The position numbers and the translations under genes are program-made. This document shows, piece by piece, positions 4,428 to 18,209 of a DNA stretch of 19,250 bases. How positions within the stretch are numbered: the stretch's first letter is position 1; each line of letters opens with the position of its first letter. Under the pieces are notes generated by a model. That model ran no database searches. It was not told where the DNA came from and worked only from the letters and a program-made list of their open reading frames with translations. This DNA comes from Candidatus Diapherotrites archaeon CG10_big_fil_rev_8_21_14_0_10_31_34 (GTDB lineage Archaea; Iainarchaeota; Iainarchaeia; Iainarchaeales; 1-14-0-10-31-34). The stretch is taken from positions 1 to 19,250 of the forward strand of contig PFAI01000020.1 in assembly GCA_002763225.1 (NCBI GenBank), written 5' to 3'.

Positions 4428-5027
4428 ATGATTGAAATAGAAGTAAAACACAAAATTAAAGGAAAAAAAGAATTAAAAAAAATAAAAAATAAATTAAATC
4501 AAATTGCTCAATTCAAAAAAAAAGAAAAAGAATTAAACCTTGTATTTGATTCAGCTGATTCTTCTTTTAAAAAAAAAGGTTTTTTGTTAAGGCTAAGAAA
4601 AGCATCAAAAAACACTTTAACATTCAAAAGCAAAATTAAAGGAAAAGGAAAATTCAAGGAAAGAAAAGAAACTGAAATGCAAATTAAGGATTTTTACAGA
4701 ACAAAAAAAACTCTGGAAAAAATGAATTTTGAGCCAAAATTTATTTATGAAAAAAAAAGGGAAACATTTGAATTAAATCAAACAGAAATTTTATTGGATG
4801 AACTTCCTTTTATTGGATTTTATCTGGAAATAGAAGGAAACAAAAAAAGCATTAAAGAAGTTGAAGAAAAACTCGGGTTAAAAGAAAAAAACCGCATTAC
4901 AAAAAATTATCTGCAGTTGTTTTTGGATTACAAGAAAAAGAAAAGATTAAAAGCAGAAAACATGTTATTTTATAGTATTAAGGAGGGAAGTTTATGTTTG
5001 GATTTGGAAAAGGAAAAATTGAAGTAA
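4428..5027 (+). CDS. CYTH-domain protein (class IV adenylate cyclase CyaB-like / triphosphate tunnel metalloenzyme)
   Basis: ExExK (IEIEVK), LRLRK, LTFK, ERKETE, YEKKRETF, LDELPFIGFYLEIE and NYLQL motifs. ATG at 4428 preferred over TTG at 4422. Overlaps the next gene by 34 bp. Confidence 0.88.
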   Translation: MIEIEVKHKIKGKKELKKIKNKLNQIAQFKKKEKELNLVFDSADSSFKKKGFLLRLRKASKNTLTFKSKIKGKGKFKERKETEMQIKDFYRTKKTLEKMNFEPKFIYEKKRETFELNQTEILLDELPFIGFYLEIEGNKKSIKEVEEKLGLKEKNRITKNYLQLFLDYKKKKRLKAENMLFYSIKEGSLCLDLEKEKLK

Positions 5028-5482
5028 TACTGGAAAAATTTAATTTCAAGCCCGGAGAAACAATTAAAGGAAAAGTTAAAGTTAAAATGAATAAGCCGAC
5101 TAAAGCAAGGCAGTTAAAAGTGGTTTTTGCCGGAACCAAAACAACTTCTTCTGGAATGATGGTTGGAAATTCTAGTTTTAGTGTTGGAATAGGATCAAGA
5201 AACCACGACAAAAGAAAAACAACAACTGAATTTGTACACAAATTTGAAATGCCTTTAGACGGAGAAAAAGAGTACACTGAAGGAGAATATGATTTAGAAA
5301 TACTTGTTCCTGCAGACATCATGCAAAGAGGAAGTGGTCCAGGCGGGGAAGTGGGAGCAGCATTAAAAGCAGTTCAGTTTCTTTCTGGAAACTCAAGCAG
5401 AATCGAATGGTATATTCAGGCAACACTAGATGTAGATAAAGGACTGGATGTAAACAAAAAAGTGCAGATAAACGTCGGATGA
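4994..5482 (+). CDS. Spo0M / arrestin-N-like beta-sandwich protein
   Basis: Strong SD AGGAGGG upstream. N-terminus GFGKGKIEVILEKFNFKPGETIKGKVKV has the LEK..f.PGE.i.G.V pattern of Spo0M/arrestin-N. C-terminus has IEWYIQATLDV. Confidence 0.65.
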   Translation: MFGFGKGKIEVILEKFNFKPGETIKGKVKVKMNKPTKARQLKVVFAGTKTTSSGMMVGNSSFSVGIGSRNHDKRKTTTEFVHKFEMPLDGEKEYTEGEYDLEILVPADIMQRGSGPGGEVGAALKAVQFLSGNSSRIEWYIQATLDVDKGLDVNKKVQINVG

Positions 5483-5550
5483 AAAAAAAACAGTTAAAAG
5501 CAATATTTTAAATGGTTAATCAGTTATAAAATATTATTTCAGGTGGATAA

Positions 5551-6606
5551 ATGAATTTAGATTTTTTGTATCAGACTTTTTTTGGATACACTATACAAGA
5601 TCTTTTGATTGCAATAGGACTGCTTGTTGCAGGATATGTTGTAGGAAAAATAGTTTATTATTTATTTAAAACAGTAGGAAGAAAATTAACAGCAAAAACC
5701 AAAACAGACTTGGATGATGTTTTACTTGATGTAATTGAAGAACCAATTGTTGTAATCATTTTTTTGACTGGAGCATATAGCGCTGCAATATACTTAAAAA
5801 TGCAGGATAGATTTTTTAGTGTAATACTAAAAATGGCAGTAATCATTCTTTTGTCTTGGACTGCAATAAGATTAGTTAATGCAATAATAGAAAAAATATT
5901 GATTCCTTTAACAAAAAAAACTAAATCTGATTTTGATGACCAAATAATTCCATTGTTTTCAAAAGGAAGCAAAACAGTAATAGTAATCCTTGCATTAATA
6001 ATGTTATTAGATGTAGTGGGATTTGATGTAACTGCATTGGTTGCAGGAGCAGGAATTATCGGATTGGCTTTGGCTTTTGCAGCACAAGAAACTGTTTCAA
6101 ACCTGTTTGGAGGAGTATCTCTTTTATTGGATAAATCAATCAGGTTAGGAGACAAAATAAAGCTGGAATCAGGCGAAGTAGGAATAGTAGATGAAGTTGG
6201 GTTAAGAAGCACCAGAATAAGAACTTACTCAAATGAAACAATACTTGTTCCAAATTCTATTATGGCTAACAGCAAAATAGTCAATTTTGCCCAGCCAAAT
6301 TCTTTTGGAAGAGGAGAAATAAAATTCGGGGCAGTTTATGGAAGCGACCCGGAAAAAGTAATTAAAATAATAACAGATTTAATGAAAAGAAACCCAAATA
6401 CATCTAAACACAAGGACAGAGAACCAAAAGTGGAAATGCTTTCAATGGGAGACTTTTCATTAAATTTTACTGCAAAATTCTGGTGTGATGACTACACACA
6501 AATATGGCCAACAGAAAGAGAATTAACCATAGAAATTTATAATGGATTAAACAAAAACAAAATTGGAATTCCTTTCCCAACCCAAACAGTTTACCTGAAA
6601 AAATAA
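5551..6606 (+). CDS. mscS: Small-conductance mechanosensitive channel
   Basis: N-terminal TM helices, then TM3 LVAGAGIIGLALAFAAQETVSNLFGG, GDKI, VGLRSTRIRT, VPNS and GIPFP. SD AGGTGG. Confidence 0.94.
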   Translation: MNLDFLYQTFFGYTIQDLLIAIGLLVAGYVVGKIVYYLFKTVGRKLTAKTKTDLDDVLLDVIEEPIVVIIFLTGAYSAAIYLKMQDRFFSVILKMAVIILLSWTAIRLVNAIIEKILIPLTKKTKSDFDDQIIPLFSKGSKTVIVILALIMLLDVVGFDVTALVAGAGIIGLALAFAAQETVSNLFGGVSLLLDKSIRLGDKIKLESGEVGIVDEVGLRSTRIRTYSNETILVPNSIMANSKIVNFAQPNSFGRGEIKFGAVYGSDPEKVIKIITDLMKRNPNTSKHKDREPKVEMLSMGDFSLNFTAKFWCDDYTQIWPTERELTIEIYNGLNKNKIGIPFPTQTVYLKK

Positions 6607-6608
6607 TT

Positions 6609-6660
6609 TCGCGGTTTCGATCGCGAGTACCGATGTATGGGATAAACTCGTACTGCTTTT
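6609..6660 (+). repeat. GC-rich two-hairpin element, copy 1, followed by a T tract
   Basis: TCGCGGT-TTCG-ATCGCGA (6609-6626) and GTATGGG-ATAAA-CTCGTAC (6635-6653). 32/46 ungapped identity (hand count) to 16797-16842. Confidence 0.8.
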
Positions 6661-6710
6661 TTCTTTTTTTTAATTTAAAAATAGAATACAATTTATAGTC
6701 GACTTTTGTT

Positions 6711-7781
6711 TTAAAGCCATTTCTTTTTTCTGAAAAACAAGAACATTGAAAAAGCAACTGAAATCATTATAATCCAAAGAATTGGATAAGACCATTCCCA
6801 ATCTAATTCAGGCATATACTTGAAGTTCATTCCATAAACTCCTGCAATAAAAGTTAAGGGAATAAAAATAGTTGCAATTATTGTCAAAACTTTCATTACT
6901 TCATTCATTTTATTGCTTATGCTTGAAAGATATACGTCAAGCATTCCTGCAACCATATCCCTGAAAGTCTCAATTGTATCAATTACCTGAATTGTGTGAT
7001 CATAGACATCCCTTAAAAAAAACAGTGTCTGCTTTGAAATTAATTTTGAGTCTCCTCTCTGCATGGCGCTAATTACTTCTCTTAAAGGCCAGACAGACCT
7101 CCTCAAAAAAATCAAGTTATGTTTTAGCCTGTAAATCGTATTTAATTCTTCTTTTGAAGGATTTTCCATTACTTTTTCTTCTAACAATTCAATTTCTTCC
7201 CCTATTTTTTCTAAAACAGAAAAATAACTGTCAACTATTGCGTCAACCAAAGCATAAACAAGGTAATCTGTTCCCATTTTCCTTATTTTTCCTTTTGCAT
7301 TCCTGATTCTTTCCCTTACTCCGTCAAAAACATCTCCTTCTCTTTCCTGAAAAGAAAAAACAAAAGTTTTTCCCACAACAAAACTAATCTGTTCTATTTC
7401 CATTTTTTTTTTTCCGCCGTTAAAATAAACCATTTTCAAAACCAAAAACAAATAAGATTCAAAATCCTCTAATTTAGGTCTCTGGTTTGTGTTAACAATA
7501 TCCTCTAAAACCAATGGATGAAACTCAAAATGAGAACCAATTTTTTCAATTAAATTAAGGTCATGCAATCCAATTATATTAAACCAGGAAACACTTGATT
7601 TGTCTTTGAAAGGAAAACAATCCTCTATTTTATCTATTTTTTTTTCTTCAAAAGTTTTTTCAGTATAATCAATTAATTCAATTTTAGAATTCTCTAACTG
7701 TTTTTTTCCTACATGAACTAAAGTTCCAGGAGAAATTCCAGGTTTAGCAGAAGATTTTTTGATATATTTTGAAAGAGGCAT
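6711..7781 (-). CDS. corA: Magnesium/cobalt transporter CorA
   Basis: PGTLVHVG, HPLVLEDI, QRPKLE, MNEVMKVLT and the signature YGMNFKYMPEL between two C-terminal TM helices. Confidence 0.96.
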   Translation of the reverse strand: MPLSKYIKKSSAKPGISPGTLVHVGKKQLENSKIELIDYTEKTFEEKKIDKIEDCFPFKDKSSVSWFNIIGLHDLNLIEKIGSHFEFHPLVLEDIVNTNQRPKLEDFESYLFLVLKMVYFNGGKKKMEIEQISFVVGKTFVFSFQEREGDVFDGVRERIRNAKGKIRKMGTDYLVYALVDAIVDSYFSVLEKIGEEIELLEEKVMENPSKEELNTIYRLKHNLIFLRRSVWPLREVISAMQRGDSKLISKQTLFFLRDVYDHTIQVIDTIETFRDMVAGMLDVYLSSISNKMNEVMKVLTIIATIFIPLTFIAGVYGMNFKYMPELDWEWSYPILWIIMISVAFSMFLFFRKKKWL

Positions 7782-7892: not shown

Positions 7893-9791
7893 ATGATTAT
7901 GGAATTAAATTATCAAGAACTGGGAATGAAAGCAGGATTAGAAGTTCATCAGCAGTTAAATACAAAAAAACTTTTTTGCTGTTGCCCTTCAATAATGAGA
8001 GAAGATTCATCAGACTTTGAATTCAAAAGAAAATTACGGGCAGTTGCATCAGAACTGGGAAAATTTGATCCGGCAGCATTAGAAGCATTCAAAAAAAAAC
8101 AAAGTTATTTATACAAATTTTATTCTGATTCAAACTGCTTGATTGAATTAGATGAAGAGCCGCCAAAACCAATTAATTTAAATGCATTAAAAACAATTTT
8201 AGAGGTCTGCCTGATGACTGAATCAAATATTGTGGATGAACTGCATGTAATGAGAAAAACCGTAATAGACGGAAGCAATACATCAGGTTTCCAGAGAACA
8301 GTTTTAGTCGGCTTAGGAGGAAAAATCAAATTAAAAGAAAAAGAAATAAAAGTACAGACCATAGTGTTAGAAGAAGATGCAGCAAAAAAAATTGAAGAAA
8401 AAGACAAAGAAATAATTTATTCTTTAGACAGATTAGGAATTCCATTAATAGAGTTAGCAACAGAACCGGATATTAAAACTCCAAAAGAAGCAAAAGAAAC
8501 AGCACTAAAAATAGGAGAACTGTTAAGAAGAACAGGAAAAACAAAAAGAGGATTAGGAAGCATAAGGCAAGACGTAAATATTTCTATTGCAGAAGGCGCA
8601 AGAGTTGAAATAAAAGGAGTGCAGGAACTGGAAATGATTGATGTTTTTGTGGAAAAAGAAGTTGAAAGACAGGTAAAATTAATTGAACTAAAAAACGAAT
8701 TACAAAAAAGAAATTCAACAAAAGAAGAACTGGAACAAGAATCAATGAAAGAAGTAAGCGGAATTTTTTCTGACAGCAAATGCAAAATGATTAAAGGAAA
8801 AAAAGTTTTTGGAATCAGGCTAAAAAAATTTAATGGATTAACAGGAAAAGAATTACAGGAAGGAAAAAGATTTGGAACAGAACTGGCAAAATACGTCAAA
8901 GCAAGAACAGGATTAAAAGGAATATTTCATTCAGATGAACTGCCAAAATATGATATAAGCAAAGAAGAAGTTGAAAAAACAAAAGAAAAACTTGTCTGTG
9001 AAAAACAAGATGCTTTTGTTTTGGTTGCAACTGAAAACCAAAAAACTGCAGAAAAAGCATTGAAAACAGTGATTCAAAGAAGTGTTATGGCGTTAAAAGG
9101 AGTTCCTGAAGAAACAAGAAATGCATTAGAAGATGGAACAACAGAATATTCAAGGCCTTTAGCGGGAAACGCAAGAATGTATCCTGAAACAGACATTCCG
9201 GCTAGAAAAATAAGCAGAAAATTATTAGAAGAATTAAAACAAAATCTTCCTTTAACTTCAGAGCAAAGAAAAATAAAATACATAAACAAATACAGGATTT
9301 CAGAACAATTAGCAGAAAAAATGAAGCTAAACAATTACGCAAGATTTTTTGAAGAACTAATTGAAAAAGGATTCAAGGCAACCGGCACAGCAGTATTATT
9401 GCTTGAAGGAATAACAACATTAAAAAGACAGGGAACAAAAACAGAAAATTTAACTGAAAAAATGATTGAAGAAACACTGAATGCAGTAAAAAAAGGAAAA
9501 CTAGTGAAAGACAATCAATTAAAAGCATTAGATTTATGGAGCAAAGAACCGGAAAAACCAATTGAATCAGTAATCAACTCATTGCAGGAAACACGGTTCT
9601 CTGAAGAAGATTTAAGAAAGTTAGTTAAAGAAACAATAGAAAAAAATTCTGCAATCATTAATACTGAAGGAACAAATGTTTTTTCTGCTTTAATGGGAGA
9701 AGTAATGATTAAAATAAAAGGAAAAGCCTCAGGAAAAGAAGCAAGCAAAATTTTAAGAGAAGAACTAAACAAAAAAGGGATAAAAGAATAA
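7893..9791 (+). CDS. gatE: Glu-tRNA(Gln) amidotransferase subunit E (start may be ATG 7899)
   Basis: GLEVHQQL..KKLFC, MRKTVIDGSNTSGFQRT, LEEDAA, LDRLGIPLIE, RQDVNISI, GIFHSDELP (GAD insertion) and ARMYPETD motifs. Confidence 0.96.
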   Translation: MIMELNYQELGMKAGLEVHQQLNTKKLFCCCPSIMREDSSDFEFKRKLRAVASELGKFDPAALEAFKKKQSYLYKFYSDSNCLIELDEEPPKPINLNALKTILEVCLMTESNIVDELHVMRKTVIDGSNTSGFQRTVLVGLGGKIKLKEKEIKVQTIVLEEDAAKKIEEKDKEIIYSLDRLGIPLIELATEPDIKTPKEAKETALKIGELLRRTGKTKRGLGSIRQDVNISIAEGARVEIKGVQELEMIDVFVEKEVERQVKLIELKNELQKRNSTKEELEQESMKEVSGIFSDSKCKMIKGKKVFGIRLKKFNGLTGKELQEGKRFGTELAKYVKARTGLKGIFHSDELPKYDISKEEVEKTKEKLVCEKQDAFVLVATENQKTAEKALKTVIQRSVMALKGVPEETRNALEDGTTEYSRPLAGNARMYPETDIPARKISRKLLEELKQNLPLTSEQRKIKYINKYRISEQLAEKMKLNNYARFFEELIEKGFKATGTAVLLLEGITTLKRQGTKTENLTEKMIEETLNAVKKGKLVKDNQLKALDLWSKEPEKPIESVINSLQETRFSEEDLRKLVKETIEKNSAIINTEGTNVFSALMGEVMIKIKGKASGKEASKILREELNKKGIKE

Positions 9792-10130
9792 CAAAAACAA
9801 AGATTAAATAACCAAAAAAAAAGAAATAAAAGAATAACAAAAAAAAGGAACAAAATTACTAAAACTGAAAAAAAAACAAATAAAAAGAAAGAAAAGAAAA
9901 ATAACAAAAAAGAATAAATAAACAAAAAAAAGAAAACAACAAAAAAAACAAAAAGGAAAAAAGAAAGAAAATTAAAGAAAAATAAACAAAAAAAAGAAAG
10001 AAAACAAATAAAAGAAACAAAAAAAATTAAAGAAAAATAAACAAAAAGAATTAAAATGAAAATAAAAAAAAGAATAACAGGGAAAAAAATTAAACAATTA
10101 AGAAAAAAATAAGAGTTAAAAAAGATTTTT
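9792..10130. repeat. 339-bp low-complexity A-rich spacer with internal direct repeats
   Basis: Roughly three-quarters A on the + strand. ATAAAAGAATAACAAAAA at 9780-9797 and 9826-9843; ATTAAAGAAAAATAAACAAAAA at 9971-9992 and 10026-10047. Confidence 0.8.
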
Positions 10131-15545: not shown

Positions 15546-16757
15546 ATGAATAAAAAAATTCTTTTTATAACATTATTGCTTTTTTCAGTTAATGCTTATG
15601 CAGCACTAGGAGAAATTGGAGGGAAACCTCCTCTTGTTTCAATCAACAATTTAGAAGAAGATTCAAGTCCGCCTTACATTGATGAATTAAATAACCTGAA
15701 AACTGATTTAGTGTTAAGAATTACATCAAATAATGCAACAGAATGCAGGTATTCAACTATTCAAGGATTTAATCCTTTAACACAAGGAAATTTATGCAGT
15801 TTAGCAGACCCTTCAAATGCAACATGCGAATTTGGAAAACTATTAAACGGGGATTACACTTATTATTATGCATGCAAAAACTCTTCTAGCACTTGGTCTT
15901 CTTCTAATTCAAAAATTGATTTTGAAGTTAATCCAAGCATTACAGTTTTTGTTTCAATTATTTCTCCTTTAGATGGAAACCAATATTATATCGGAAAAGA
16001 AATATTATTTGAAGCTGAAATTATTTGCGCAAATGAACCATGCACTTTTAGATGGGATTCAAACAAAGACACTGGGTGGCATTCAACAGACCAAAACATT
16101 TCATACAATGGGCTAAGTATCGGAGACCATAATATCAGTCTGACTGTAACAGATTTTTTTGGAGGGGTTGAAAAAGGTTATACAATAATTTCAATTAATC
16201 CAATCCCAACAGATGTATTATCAATCTCAGATTTTCAAATAACAAAATTAGAGCCAGCAGACAGATATGCAGTAAACAGCAAAATAAGAGTTCAGGCAAA
16301 AGTAAACTATTTCTTGTTTGAATCAATTAATGCAAAAGCATTCATCATAATCAGCGACCCAAGAACCGGACAAGCATTATACGGCCCAGAACCATTTTAC
16401 TTAAATTTTTCAGTTCCTGCTTTTGAAGAATATGATTTAAACATTGATTTAGGAAACTATGGTTTTGAAGAAAGACAAAACTATAAAATAGAATTTTTGG
16501 TTGTAAGCAATTTCGTTGAATCTTCTCCTGAATACTTTGTTGACCCAATGGATGAATACAGTGATTACTGGGCAGACGGACAAATATATTTTATTCCGGA
16601 AACACAAATCCCAGAACAAAACAAGGCAAACAATTCAGGATATGAAATAATTGAATTAGGCCCTGAAGTATTAAGAGACATAAGCAATCTCCCTGAAACA
16701 AACTCAACAATAATTTTACTGATTGTTTTTGCAGTTTTAATCCTACTTAAAAAATAA
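15546..16757 (+). CDS. Cell-surface protein with Ig/PKD-like domains and a C-terminal sorting-type anchor
   Basis: Signal peptide MNKK...VNAYA. PKD-like segment (IISPLDG...FRWDSN...LSIGDHNISLTVTD), CARDB-like E.NxxNN, and a C-terminal LPET + TM helix + KK. Confidence 0.8.
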   Translation: MNKKILFITLLLFSVNAYAALGEIGGKPPLVSINNLEEDSSPPYIDELNNLKTDLVLRITSNNATECRYSTIQGFNPLTQGNLCSLADPSNATCEFGKLLNGDYTYYYACKNSSSTWSSSNSKIDFEVNPSITVFVSIISPLDGNQYYIGKEILFEAEIICANEPCTFRWDSNKDTGWHSTDQNISYNGLSIGDHNISLTVTDFFGGVEKGYTIISINPIPTDVLSISDFQITKLEPADRYAVNSKIRVQAKVNYFLFESINAKAFIIISDPRTGQALYGPEPFYLNFSVPAFEEYDLNIDLGNYGFEERQNYKIEFLVVSNFVESSPEYFVDPMDEYSDYWADGQIYFIPETQIPEQNKANNSGYEIIELGPEVLRDISNLPETNSTIILLIVFAVLILLKK

Positions 16758-16763
16758 AAAAAA

Positions 16764-16905
16764 GCAGTGCTATCGAACGAAGTGAGGATAGCACGTTCAC
16801 GATTCCGATCGTGAGTGCCAGTGCACGACGTAAAGTCGTGCTAGCACGAGTGAAACTCGTGCCTCGTCACAGCCGAACGAAATCAGCTCGCGCGAGCAGG
16901 CGCGA
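16764..16905 (+). repeat. GC-rich five-hairpin cassette containing copy 2 of the 6609 element
   Basis: GTGCTATC-12nt-GATAGCAC (16767-16794), TCACGAT-TCCG-ATCGTGA (16797-16814), GCACGAC-GTAAA-GTCGTGC (16823-16841), GCACGAG-TGAAA-CTCGTGC (16844-16862), and palindrome GCTCGCGCGAGC (16886-16897). Confidence 0.85.
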
Positions 16906-16924: not shown

Positions 16925-18084
16925 TTACTTGTTTTCCATTAGTTTTTTCAGGATTGGAGGGGTAACTAAAGTTGTTAGCATTATCACTACAACAAGAATT
17001 GAGTACATTCCTTCTCCAATAAAGGCATGAGCTAAACCAAAAGTAGCAAAAATCAGTCCTACTTCTCCTCTTGGAATCATTCCGACTCCAACAGAGCTAG
17101 TTTAGATGCTTTTGTTCCAATTGCACCAACCCCTGCAATAATCTTTCCCACTAAAGCAATAATCAGCAATACTGCCCCTAAAGGAAGCAAATCAATGTTA
17201 ACTGTATAGATGTTTACTGCTACTCCGGCCATAACAAAAAAAATTGGGGTAAACACATCTCCGATTACCTCAGTTTTTTTCATCATGTGTTCTTTGTGTT
17301 CTTCTCTTTCTAAAATCAATCCGGCTGCAAATGCCCCGACAATTGCCGCCAAGCCAATCATTTGCGCAAGATAACCTAAAGCCAAAGCAAAAATTACTGC
17401 TGAAACAATAAAAGTTCTTTGGACTTTAAGGTGTCTAATTAAATCTAAGATTGGCCCCTCTAATTTCATTCCAAGCACTACAGTAACTGCAAGGAATAAA
17501 ACTGACATTACAATTGTCTGCAATACATTAAATACTTCAACTGAACCTGTTTCAGCTATTCCTGCTAACACAGATAAAATAATTAATCCAAGAACATCAT
17601 CTATTACTGCTGCCCCTAAAATAATTTTTCCTTCCAATGAAGTAATTTTCTTCATTTCACTTAAAACTCTCATTGTTACCCCGACACTTGTTGCAGTAAG
17701 AGTTGCACCAATAAACAAGGCTGCATTAAAATCCAGTGCCTCAACATACAGCAAATAAGGCAGTGCAAGAATCACAGGAGAAATTACTCCGATTACTGCA
17801 ACCATTAAAGCTGCCTTGCCGCTTTTCAATAATTCATGAATATTGGATTCTAATCCAACTAAAAACAATAAAATTATTACTCCGATTTCAGATAAAAACA
17901 TTAAAATTTCTTCACTGCCGTCAATAAAACCAAACAAGCTTGGTCCCAGCAAAACACCTACAAGCAATTCACCTAAAACTCTTGGCTGTTTTATTCTGTC
18001 AAACAAAAACCCTGCAATTTTTGCAGCAAACAAAATTACAATTAGTTTTAGCATTATTTCAGTTATAATAGTAGTCTCAGACAA
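16925..18084 (-). pseudogene. Cation:proton antiporter (CPA2/NapA-like), frameshifted near the 3' end
   Basis: P.VLGELLVG.LLGP, LLFLVGLE, TATSVGVT, AAVIDD, GAFAAG and PIFFV motifs. The track ORF ends at 17077, but the conserved VGVGMIPRGEVG...TTLVTPPILKKLMENK* continues in another frame to 16925. Likely start is TTG 18084 after SD AGGTGA. Confidence 0.88.
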
Positions 18085-18209
18085 TTTATCACCTTGATTC
18101 AATTCTAGAAAAAAAATAATAATTAAAAATGTTTAAAAAGTTATTTTAGAATTAAGCTGAAAAAAGAATAACAATACACTTAAATTTTTGTTTTACATAT
18201 TAATAATAA

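Follow-up and report, generated by a model that had tools for sequence, protein, structure and literature searches.

The window analysed here is a stretch of 19,250 nucleotides (C31:1-19250) of a 1.04-Mb, 31% GC draft genome (81% complete; G000 in what follows) from a Diapherotrites archaeon, and it encodes relatives of Dph6, AlaX, GatD, GatE, MscS, CorA, RpiA, and PurM. Its named GatE homologues bear the labels Diapherotrites, Micrarchaeota, and 'Candidatus ainarchaeum', and the DNA occurs in groundwater runs, so that the host is a DPANN archaeon, likely of the Iainarchaeota. A first-pass annotation, made from the sequence alone, drew attention to a segment at 6609-6654 that aligns without gaps to 16797-16842, and proposed that selection acts on a single-stranded fold, in the form of a 3′-UTR RNA motif, a small noncoding RNA, or a REP-like single-stranded DNA element. 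The 14 differences in 46 nt and all of the substitutions it listed can be read directly in the sequence: both bases are exchanged in three stem pairs (G-C to A-T at unit positions 3/16, T-A to C-G at 28/44, and G-C to C-G at 33/39), three one-sided changes all give G-T pairs on the + strand (6/13, 30/42, and 32/40), each of these pairs lying in copy 1, and the remaining changes lie in the loops (two) and the linker (three). The unit is 48 nt long (6609-6656 for copy 1) rather than the 46 nt first aligned, and is composed of two hairpins, B and A, joined by a linker. The features at the two clusters are as follows.

5551-6606, + strand: MscS-family mechanosensitive channel, host gene of copy 1; no element behind it in any of five congeners
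6609-6626, + strand: hairpin B of unit 1; 6-bp stem with one G-T pair, 6-nt loop TTTCGA (TTNCGN in the family); exact end of the element
6627-6634, + strand: linker of unit 1; 8 nt (RKMAC-GR-N in the family), fixed in length, with a conserved AC-G core, and unpaired in the family
6635-6656, + strand: hairpin A of unit 1; 7-bp stem with two G-T pairs, 5-nt loop ATAAA, tail TGC
6657-6672, + strand: T-rich flank, giving hairpin A a terminator-like look at copy 1
6711-7781, − strand: CorA, the convergent neighbor; arrangement identical but element-free in congeners G001 and G004
15546-16757, + strand: gene hosting the second cluster; 403 aa, matching no family above cut-off; element absent in all four congeners with a clear orthologue
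16764-16794, − strand: hairpin A (long loop) and TGC tail of a variant host unit
16797-16844, + strand: unit 2 (copy 2); perfect B and A stems; left half of a doublet, with the joint GCTAGC
16841-16888, − strand: unit 3; forms the right half of the doublet and reads on the strand opposite to unit 2
16888-16905, − strand: hairpin B of the variant host unit; loop CTGCTC; the doublet replaces its linker, and an un-nested copy lies on contig C60

Both copies had been placed behind the stop codon of a + strand gene in a convergent gap. The gaps are indeed convergent and copy 1 starts 2 nt past the mscS stop, whereas copy 2 starts ~40 nt past the stop of its gene and is one half of an inverted doublet, whose partner at 16841-16888 had been missed; the doublet is in turn nested in a fourth, variant unit. 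A covariance model finds three full units in the window, at 6609-6656 (+), 16797-16844 (+), and 16841-16888 (−), and this nested composite recurs on contig C51 (94% identity over 117 nt). Copy 1 is not an artefact of one assembly, because a contig from a second groundwater run, which may share its campaign with the first, spans 5500-6993 and carries the element unchanged, with one differing letter outside it.

Elsewhere in the window, a 162-aa protein is encoded directly upstream of mscS (4994-5482, + strand), with a match to the arrestin N-domain (E 1e-6) and a weak match to Spo0M. The gap that separates gatE from the NAD(P)HX dehydratase gene contains ~350 nt of A-rich, purine-biased, low-complexity DNA (9760-10130) with a GC content of 16-18% and an AT skew of up to 0.8, in which no long + strand ORF is listed. 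At 16925-18102 (− strand), a cation/proton antiporter ORF ends at 17077 (341 aa), against congener frames of ~400 codons, and antiporter-homologous coding sequence continues to ~16925; a frameshift near 17100 is either real or an assembly error.

A family of two-hairpin repeats

The family is not limited to the two copies that were originally compared. Counting copy 1 itself, five places in the genome agree with it at no fewer than 32 of the 46 nt; 10 locally shuffled genomes each contained none. Hairpin B modules were sought without favoring either strand (G-T and A-C scored alike), by requiring a 6-bp stem and a loop with T in second place and CG in fourth and fifth, followed by an iterated weight matrix; this identified 63 in G000, against 0, 1, and 0 in three shuffled genomes. 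With the covariance model, and up to 100 candidates scored per genome, there are 70 matches in G000 and 74, 17, 69, 66, and 36 in the five congeners; matches are present in 26 of 61 relatives, and the family in 36 of the 101 genomes of a phylum sample. Two sequence patterns gave no match in viral contigs. A pattern scan of other species' genomes returned at least 115 stretches, and the 80 matches listed are single and from unrelated bacteria; we take these to be chance. No published description of the family was found in the open full-text literature, a search whose coverage mostly excludes subscription journals.

Units have a constant order: hairpin B (6-bp stem, loop TTNCGN) comes first, a linker of 8 nt (RKMAC-GR-N) joins it to hairpin A, and the unit closes with a tail that reads TGC or TAG. 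The A hairpin, which is clear in 56 of the 63 units, has a 7-bp stem and loops that vary freely in length (3 to >20 nt) and orientation. The two ends of single units are unlike each other, and there is no poly(A) tail. Copies occur in both orientations, as inverted doublets, and as nested mosaics, and hairpins are exchanged between units: hairpin A of copy 1 differs by two bases from that at G000:C11:6183-6230, where it stands with a different hairpin B, so the modules have been shuffled.

Selection on the two-hairpin fold, as first proposed, is borne out by the alignment of 28 short-loop units (26 from the G000 set and 2 from G001), in which 12 of the 13 pairs over both stems show two-sided change and 97% of cells are paired, a result equaled in 0 of 500 shuffles and compared with 27-39% in slid controls; because the aligned units were picked for stem pairing and are mutually related, these figures overstate the covariation. 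The individual motifs that the annotation had emphasized fare less well. The supposed UNCG tetraloop is a 6-nt TTNCGN loop, with A at the last position in only 3 of 63 units and a closing pair formed in 7 of 28; the RTAAA loop of hairpin A is not conserved, with TTTCA, CTTCG, and long loops being common; and the alternative helix involving the linker occurs in 2 of 63 units, these two copies alone, with pairing at the level of shuffled sequences. Nor does the fold correspond to an Rfam family, as there is no match in the window and none at seven other unit loci (E up to 10), with eight noise matches around copy 1 that lie far below threshold. Copy 1 itself folds no better than its shuffles (RNA z −1.42, DNA z −0.38), whereas copy 2 folds better on either strand (z −4.4 and −5.4).

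A preferred folding strand had also been proposed, and this holds for one hairpin. In hairpin B, G-T pairs outnumber A-C mismatches 26 to 8 over 190 units, a bias drawn from 34 mismatches in related sequences, with ratios of 11:1 in sense and 10:3 in antisense context; hairpin A has no such bias (G-T:A-C of 11:7 in G000 and 3:8 in the congeners). As the bias in hairpin B is seen in sense and antisense copies alike, the folding strand is therefore the element's own and not that of the host transcript.

Insertion sites, polarity, and target duplications

Behind mscS, the unit is missing in all five congeners, two of which have the same convergent corA gene, and behind the 403-aa gene it is missing in all four with a clear orthologue (in G003 the gene has more distant copies only), G002 aligning as a clean empty site for this second cluster. 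Because ~70 copies are scattered over the genome and the same spot is empty in five sister species, the unit is likely a mobile element. No presence/absence variation within the species was seen in the one contig that spans the element, and the contigs of three low-coverage runs did not bridge it.

Insertion is polar. In 21 of 42 cases the B end falls between −3 and +5 nt of a stop codon or of the end of a tRNA; for the A end, the count is 1 of 28. With nine units within ORF or tRNA calls set aside, 20 of 40 units have the B end at a gene or tRNA edge, against 5.5 expected from random placement in the element-free gap (0 of 100,000 simulations reach this). Eleven units adjoin stop codons in sense, and several stop codons run into the opening bases of hairpin B. 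Convergent gaps contain more units than their share of all gaps would give (14 of 49 units, compared with 77 of 546 gaps), and relative to the upstream gene 36 are in sense and 16 in antisense orientation. Of 119 congener units, taken from 69 loci picked among the top model matches, 16 stand in sense against a tRNA 3′ end and 13 in antisense against a tRNA 5′ end; another 12 are found within tRNA introns, most of them at a splice junction, 35-37 nt from the end of the tRNA. The target edges coincide with the cut sites of RNase P, RNase Z, and EndA.

Some insertions stand at a set distance behind a hairpin. Nine of 17 nested units start 6-7 nt past another hairpin B, a peak that does not amount to nine independent events because nested composites recur as units, and 17 of 23 units start 8-9 nt past a tRNA T-arm, a distance that is confounded with the tRNA edge. 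The T-arm loop, TTCGA, resembles the loop of hairpin B. At non-tRNA insertion points (148 other units), upstream hairpins show no excess over a shifted control.

Target duplications are long and variable. Perfect direct repeats of 18, 22, 23, 27, and 28 bp, ending within 2 nt of hairpin B, flank five insertions among the 63 G000 units, with none at either window cluster; the score threshold used for these insertions is reached by 2 of 113 control gene ends. Duplications of 18-19 bp are present at two insertions among the 119 congener units, and duplications of 14-33 bp at seven insertions among 40 loci that come mostly from other families. Between hairpin A and the repeat there is a tail of a few to ~20 nt. 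Two long repeats in G000 were rejected as duplications, one consisting of tandem tRNA-Lys genes and the other of two related units, as were two further candidates among the congener units.

Several loci with unusual arrangements were also recorded. At a tRNA-Glu gene (G000:C31:24265-24624), the final 23 nt are present in three copies separated by hairpin cassettes, the middle copy having two changes; the array has a CRISPR-like look, but without Cas1, and the tRNA-Glu gene of G001 (L016:380-760) has a related arrangement. At G000:C15:8494-8581, a single unit lies just after a start codon, and an 18-bp duplication restores the ribosome-binding site and ATG downstream. Units at G000:C24:26948-27025, C52:18648-18696, and C32:17548-17594 overlap long ORF calls near their 5′ ends, and may be in-frame insertions or reflect mis-called starts.

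Known repeat families and candidate enzymes

The closest likenesses are among repeats that encode no protein of their own. Bacterial REP, BIME, and REPIN sequences, moved by RAYT (TnpA-REP), are described as short, GC-rich intergenic hairpins with inverted doublets and mosaic clusters, a preference for convergent gaps and for the vicinity of the 3′ ends of genes, termini that provide stop codons, and inferred single-stranded handling, all of which resemble the archaeal family (PMC6006769, PMC3733652). The archaeal unit, however, has two different hairpins and duplications of 14-33 bp; a GT[AG]G tag within 6 nt outside either end is present in only 2 of 63 units; and five of the six genomes of the genus have no Y1 transposase gene, with no unit-flanked Y1 gene (REPtron) in the genus. 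For Archaea, the IS200-type subclass alone is reported (PMC6006769). CGTC-tagged REPs and the Neisseria NTS (dRS3) repeats recognized by the GIY-YIG nuclease Ssn offer a further parallel, in that the orienting tags conserved before hairpin B on the opposite strand (CCGTTAC, TCGTGCT, and TCGTCAC) recall CGTC (PMC11893778, PMC3733652), and the strand-specific hairpin recognition described for Ssn (PMC11893778) is the mechanism that we infer for the archaeal unit. The degenerate SRM motif, however, occurs in 0 of 63 units (with one unrelated match in the genome), the stem is 6 bp and not 8-9 bp, GIY-YIG proteins over cut-off are found in 0 of 6 genus genomes, and units do not flank the order's small GIY-YIG genes.

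The YPAL (RU-2) elements of Yersinia are similar in having internal hairpins without terminal inverted repeats, high GC content, filled and empty sites, variable duplications (3-26 bp), and targets at or beside dyad symmetry (PMC2229807). They are bacterial and ~168 bp long, compared with 48 nt, and the likeness is one of described features; targeting of tRNA edges or introns is not mentioned for YPAL in the excerpted account (PMC2229807). MITEs differ from the archaeal family, whose units have unlike ends without terminal inverted repeats and duplications of 14-33 bp or none, rather than fixed short ones, and a casposon or Cas1-made array does not fit with Cas1 in 0 of 5 genomes. The double-hairpin elements of Allomyces mitochondria belong with the yeast GC clusters as a close known system. 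The GC clusters (GC42) of yeast mitochondria are described as GC-rich palindromes of ~40-50 nt in an AT-rich genome, with stems under constraint, modules that merge and reshuffle, turnover between presence and absence, and a mobilizer that is not known, but they are organellar and their duplications are 2-3 bp (AG, ACT) rather than 14-33 bp (PMC4478555). Among archaeal repeats, the SMRs and PATEs of Haloquadratum walsbyi are likewise transposase-free and insert into the palindromes of other elements, and SMR mobilization is called enigmatic; SMRs, however, are 80-110 bp long with terminal inverted repeats, PATEs derive from IS605-type ends, and neither makes duplications (PMC3119063). Our units, unlike PATEs and IS200/IS605 elements, duplicate their targets in some cases and do not lie at Y1 gene ends, and TnpB is found in 0 of 6 genomes. 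Feature by feature, the family is without the marks of GTAG-tagged REPs, SRM repeats, REPtrons, Ssn-linked repeats, MITEs, and PATE/SMR elements, and has those of YPAL-like elements together with the doublets and mosaics of REPs.

A mobilizing enzyme was sought with profile families in the draft genomes (81% complete in the case of G000), and none was found among the families tried, which were GIY-YIG, Y1_Tnp, Cas1, reverse transcriptase, DUF559, TnpB, IS110, HNH, Cas4-like, and tyrosine recombinase. GIY-YIG proteins over cut-off, absent from the six genomes of the genus, are present in 34 of 61 relatives, and two of 30 such loci of the order hold one unit, each at a neighboring tRNA gene. Y1_Tnp is present in one of the six genus genomes, where it is not unit-flanked, and in 18 of 61 relatives; of 30 Y1 loci, one has a clear unit, ~600 nt away. 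No Cas1 passes the cut-off in five genomes, and a reverse transcriptase was found in one of five genomes tested (none in G000), its two loci having no unit. TnpB and IS110 are each found in 0 of 6 genomes, DUF559 in one (a single weak match), HNH in two, Cas4-like proteins in five (two over cut-off), and tyrosine recombinases in all six. In a scan of 20 candidate-enzyme loci, with three tyrosine recombinase/DUF559 loci left out for size, units were seen only at L338, where they belong to a tRNA-Leu array.

Two genes with units on both sides were considered and rejected for lack of nuclease resemblance: a 597-aa coiled-coil-like ORF in G000, and a gene in G116 whose product we take to be an FKBP-type isomerase look-alike. 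Separately, stand-alone GIY-YIG proteins of ~80-100 aa (L191-L219), presumably of the housekeeping UPF0213 type, are common in the order and were not found in the six genomes of the genus, the group with the greatest abundance of the repeat; their loss might allow hairpin repeats to build up.

Mode of spread

Our verdict is that the element behind mscS is real, non-random, and structured, and that it is a copy of a mobile repeat and not a new RNA gene. We think it probable that 6609-6656 is one of ~70 copies of a gene-less 48-nt repeat, absent from the corresponding sister-species sites, which is likely a non-autonomous mobile element and likely recognized, in the form of a folded single strand, by an enzyme whose gene lies elsewhere. 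As to kind, it is best read as a REP/YPAL-like non-autonomous mobile repeat that is likely processed while single-stranded and folded, which supports the last of the three options originally put forward, the REP-like single-stranded element.

The other two options, a 3′-UTR RNA motif (or terminator) and a small noncoding RNA selected for function at these genes, would account for the position of copy 1, which begins 2 nt past a stop and scores as terminator-like with its T run, for the excess in convergent gaps, and for the units that adjoin stop codons in sense. However, orthologous sites are empty in all congeners examined, units occur in both orientations and antisense copies retain the folding strand (G-T over A-C, 10 to 3), a T run follows hairpin A in only 11 of 56 units, the G004 empty site has T-rich DNA as well, copy 1 folds the most weakly, and Rfam gives nothing above noise. 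We now regard a cis-acting function as quite improbable, and the regulatory-RNA reading of the mscS hairpins can be dropped; any effect on the mscS and corA transcript ends would be secondary. It is extremely unlikely that a small self-cleaving ribozyme or other catalytic RNA drives its own spread. The covarying stems around a conserved linker are compatible with this, and a similar suggestion exists for the GC clusters of yeast (PMC4478555), but no Rfam match was obtained, the two hairpins are unconnected and the sole tertiary pairing proposed fails, and hairpin A loops vary freely in length and orientation.

Spread could instead proceed through RNA, with a folded transcript joined to processed RNA ends (tRNA 5′ or 3′ ends, splice sites, or mRNA ends) or primed at a nick, and reverse-copied into DNA as in target-primed retroposition. 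Target-primed reverse transcription yields one exact end, one loose end, and variable duplications, which fits the junctions seen here, and the edges used are RNase P, RNase Z, and EndA cut sites. Because sense copies outnumber antisense copies 36 to 16, we give an RNA step some weight, but we judge this route unlikely overall: the single genome with a reverse transcriptase is not G000 and neither of its two loci has a unit, there is no poly(A) tail, and joining to tRNA 5′ ends needs the element strand opposite to that for joining to 3′ ends. A further alternative dispenses with dedicated mobilization altogether: intergenic patches rich in hairpins would have passed units to one another through replication slippage, template switching, and gene conversion, and deletion and selection alone would have shaped the edges. 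This agrees with the lack of a transposase or linked nuclease among the families tried, with the mosaics and module shuffling, and with the several stops that overlap the first bases of hairpin B, as selection on junctions would give; it is nonetheless very unlikely, given clean insertions in unrelated sequence, perfect duplications with an edge flush to the gene end, and a fixed geometry with near-invariant loop and linker bases that point to a protein reader.

For a non-autonomous element read as a folded single strand, we envisage that the strand reading B-linker-A would be copied or peeled off, with hairpin B and the linker serving as the recognition end for an enzyme acting in trans. The 5′ end of hairpin B would be attached, with single-base precision, to a single-stranded target that has been nicked, whereas the A end would be resolved loosely by re-synthesis from 14-33 nt upstream, giving the variable duplication and the short variable tails. 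B-like hairpins may guide some insertions, 6-7 nt behind another hairpin B or 8-9 nt behind a tRNA T-arm, and purifying selection would retain only events at or beyond a gene edge. Copy 1 would be an ageing insertion, its three G-T pairs representing tolerated decay.

What emerges is a mobile repeat of reduced archaeal genomes which, as far as our searches went, lack the enzymes by which repeats of this kind are known to be mobilized, and its junctions, with an exact B end, a loose A end, and a long variable duplication, define the substrate for a nuclease or ligase hunt. Its interest lies in the missing mobilizer, in these unusual junctions, and in its connection with tRNA introns. More speculatively, the family may represent a new minimal class of mobile element, although we hold this only tentatively and think it rather doubtful as a whole: a folded strand of 48 nt that is exact at one end and loose at the other, moved by a DPANN housekeeping enzyme without a transposase, finding targets by structural mimicry (hairpin B resembling the tRNA T-arm, with cuts 6-9 nt behind such hairpins), rebuilding the gene edge by a 14-33 bp duplication, and seeding and growing archaeal tRNA introns.

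Among individual tRNA loci in G000, introns of 76-121 nt in tRNA-Tyr, tRNA-Ala, and tRNA-Thr genes contain units (G000:C37:2920-3085, C25:2683-2848, and C45:2502-2697), and other tRNA introns hold AT-rich and short-B variants of the unit. In G044, a unit lies within an apparent RNase P RNA gene (L186:1400-1750), which we take to be such from its motifs.
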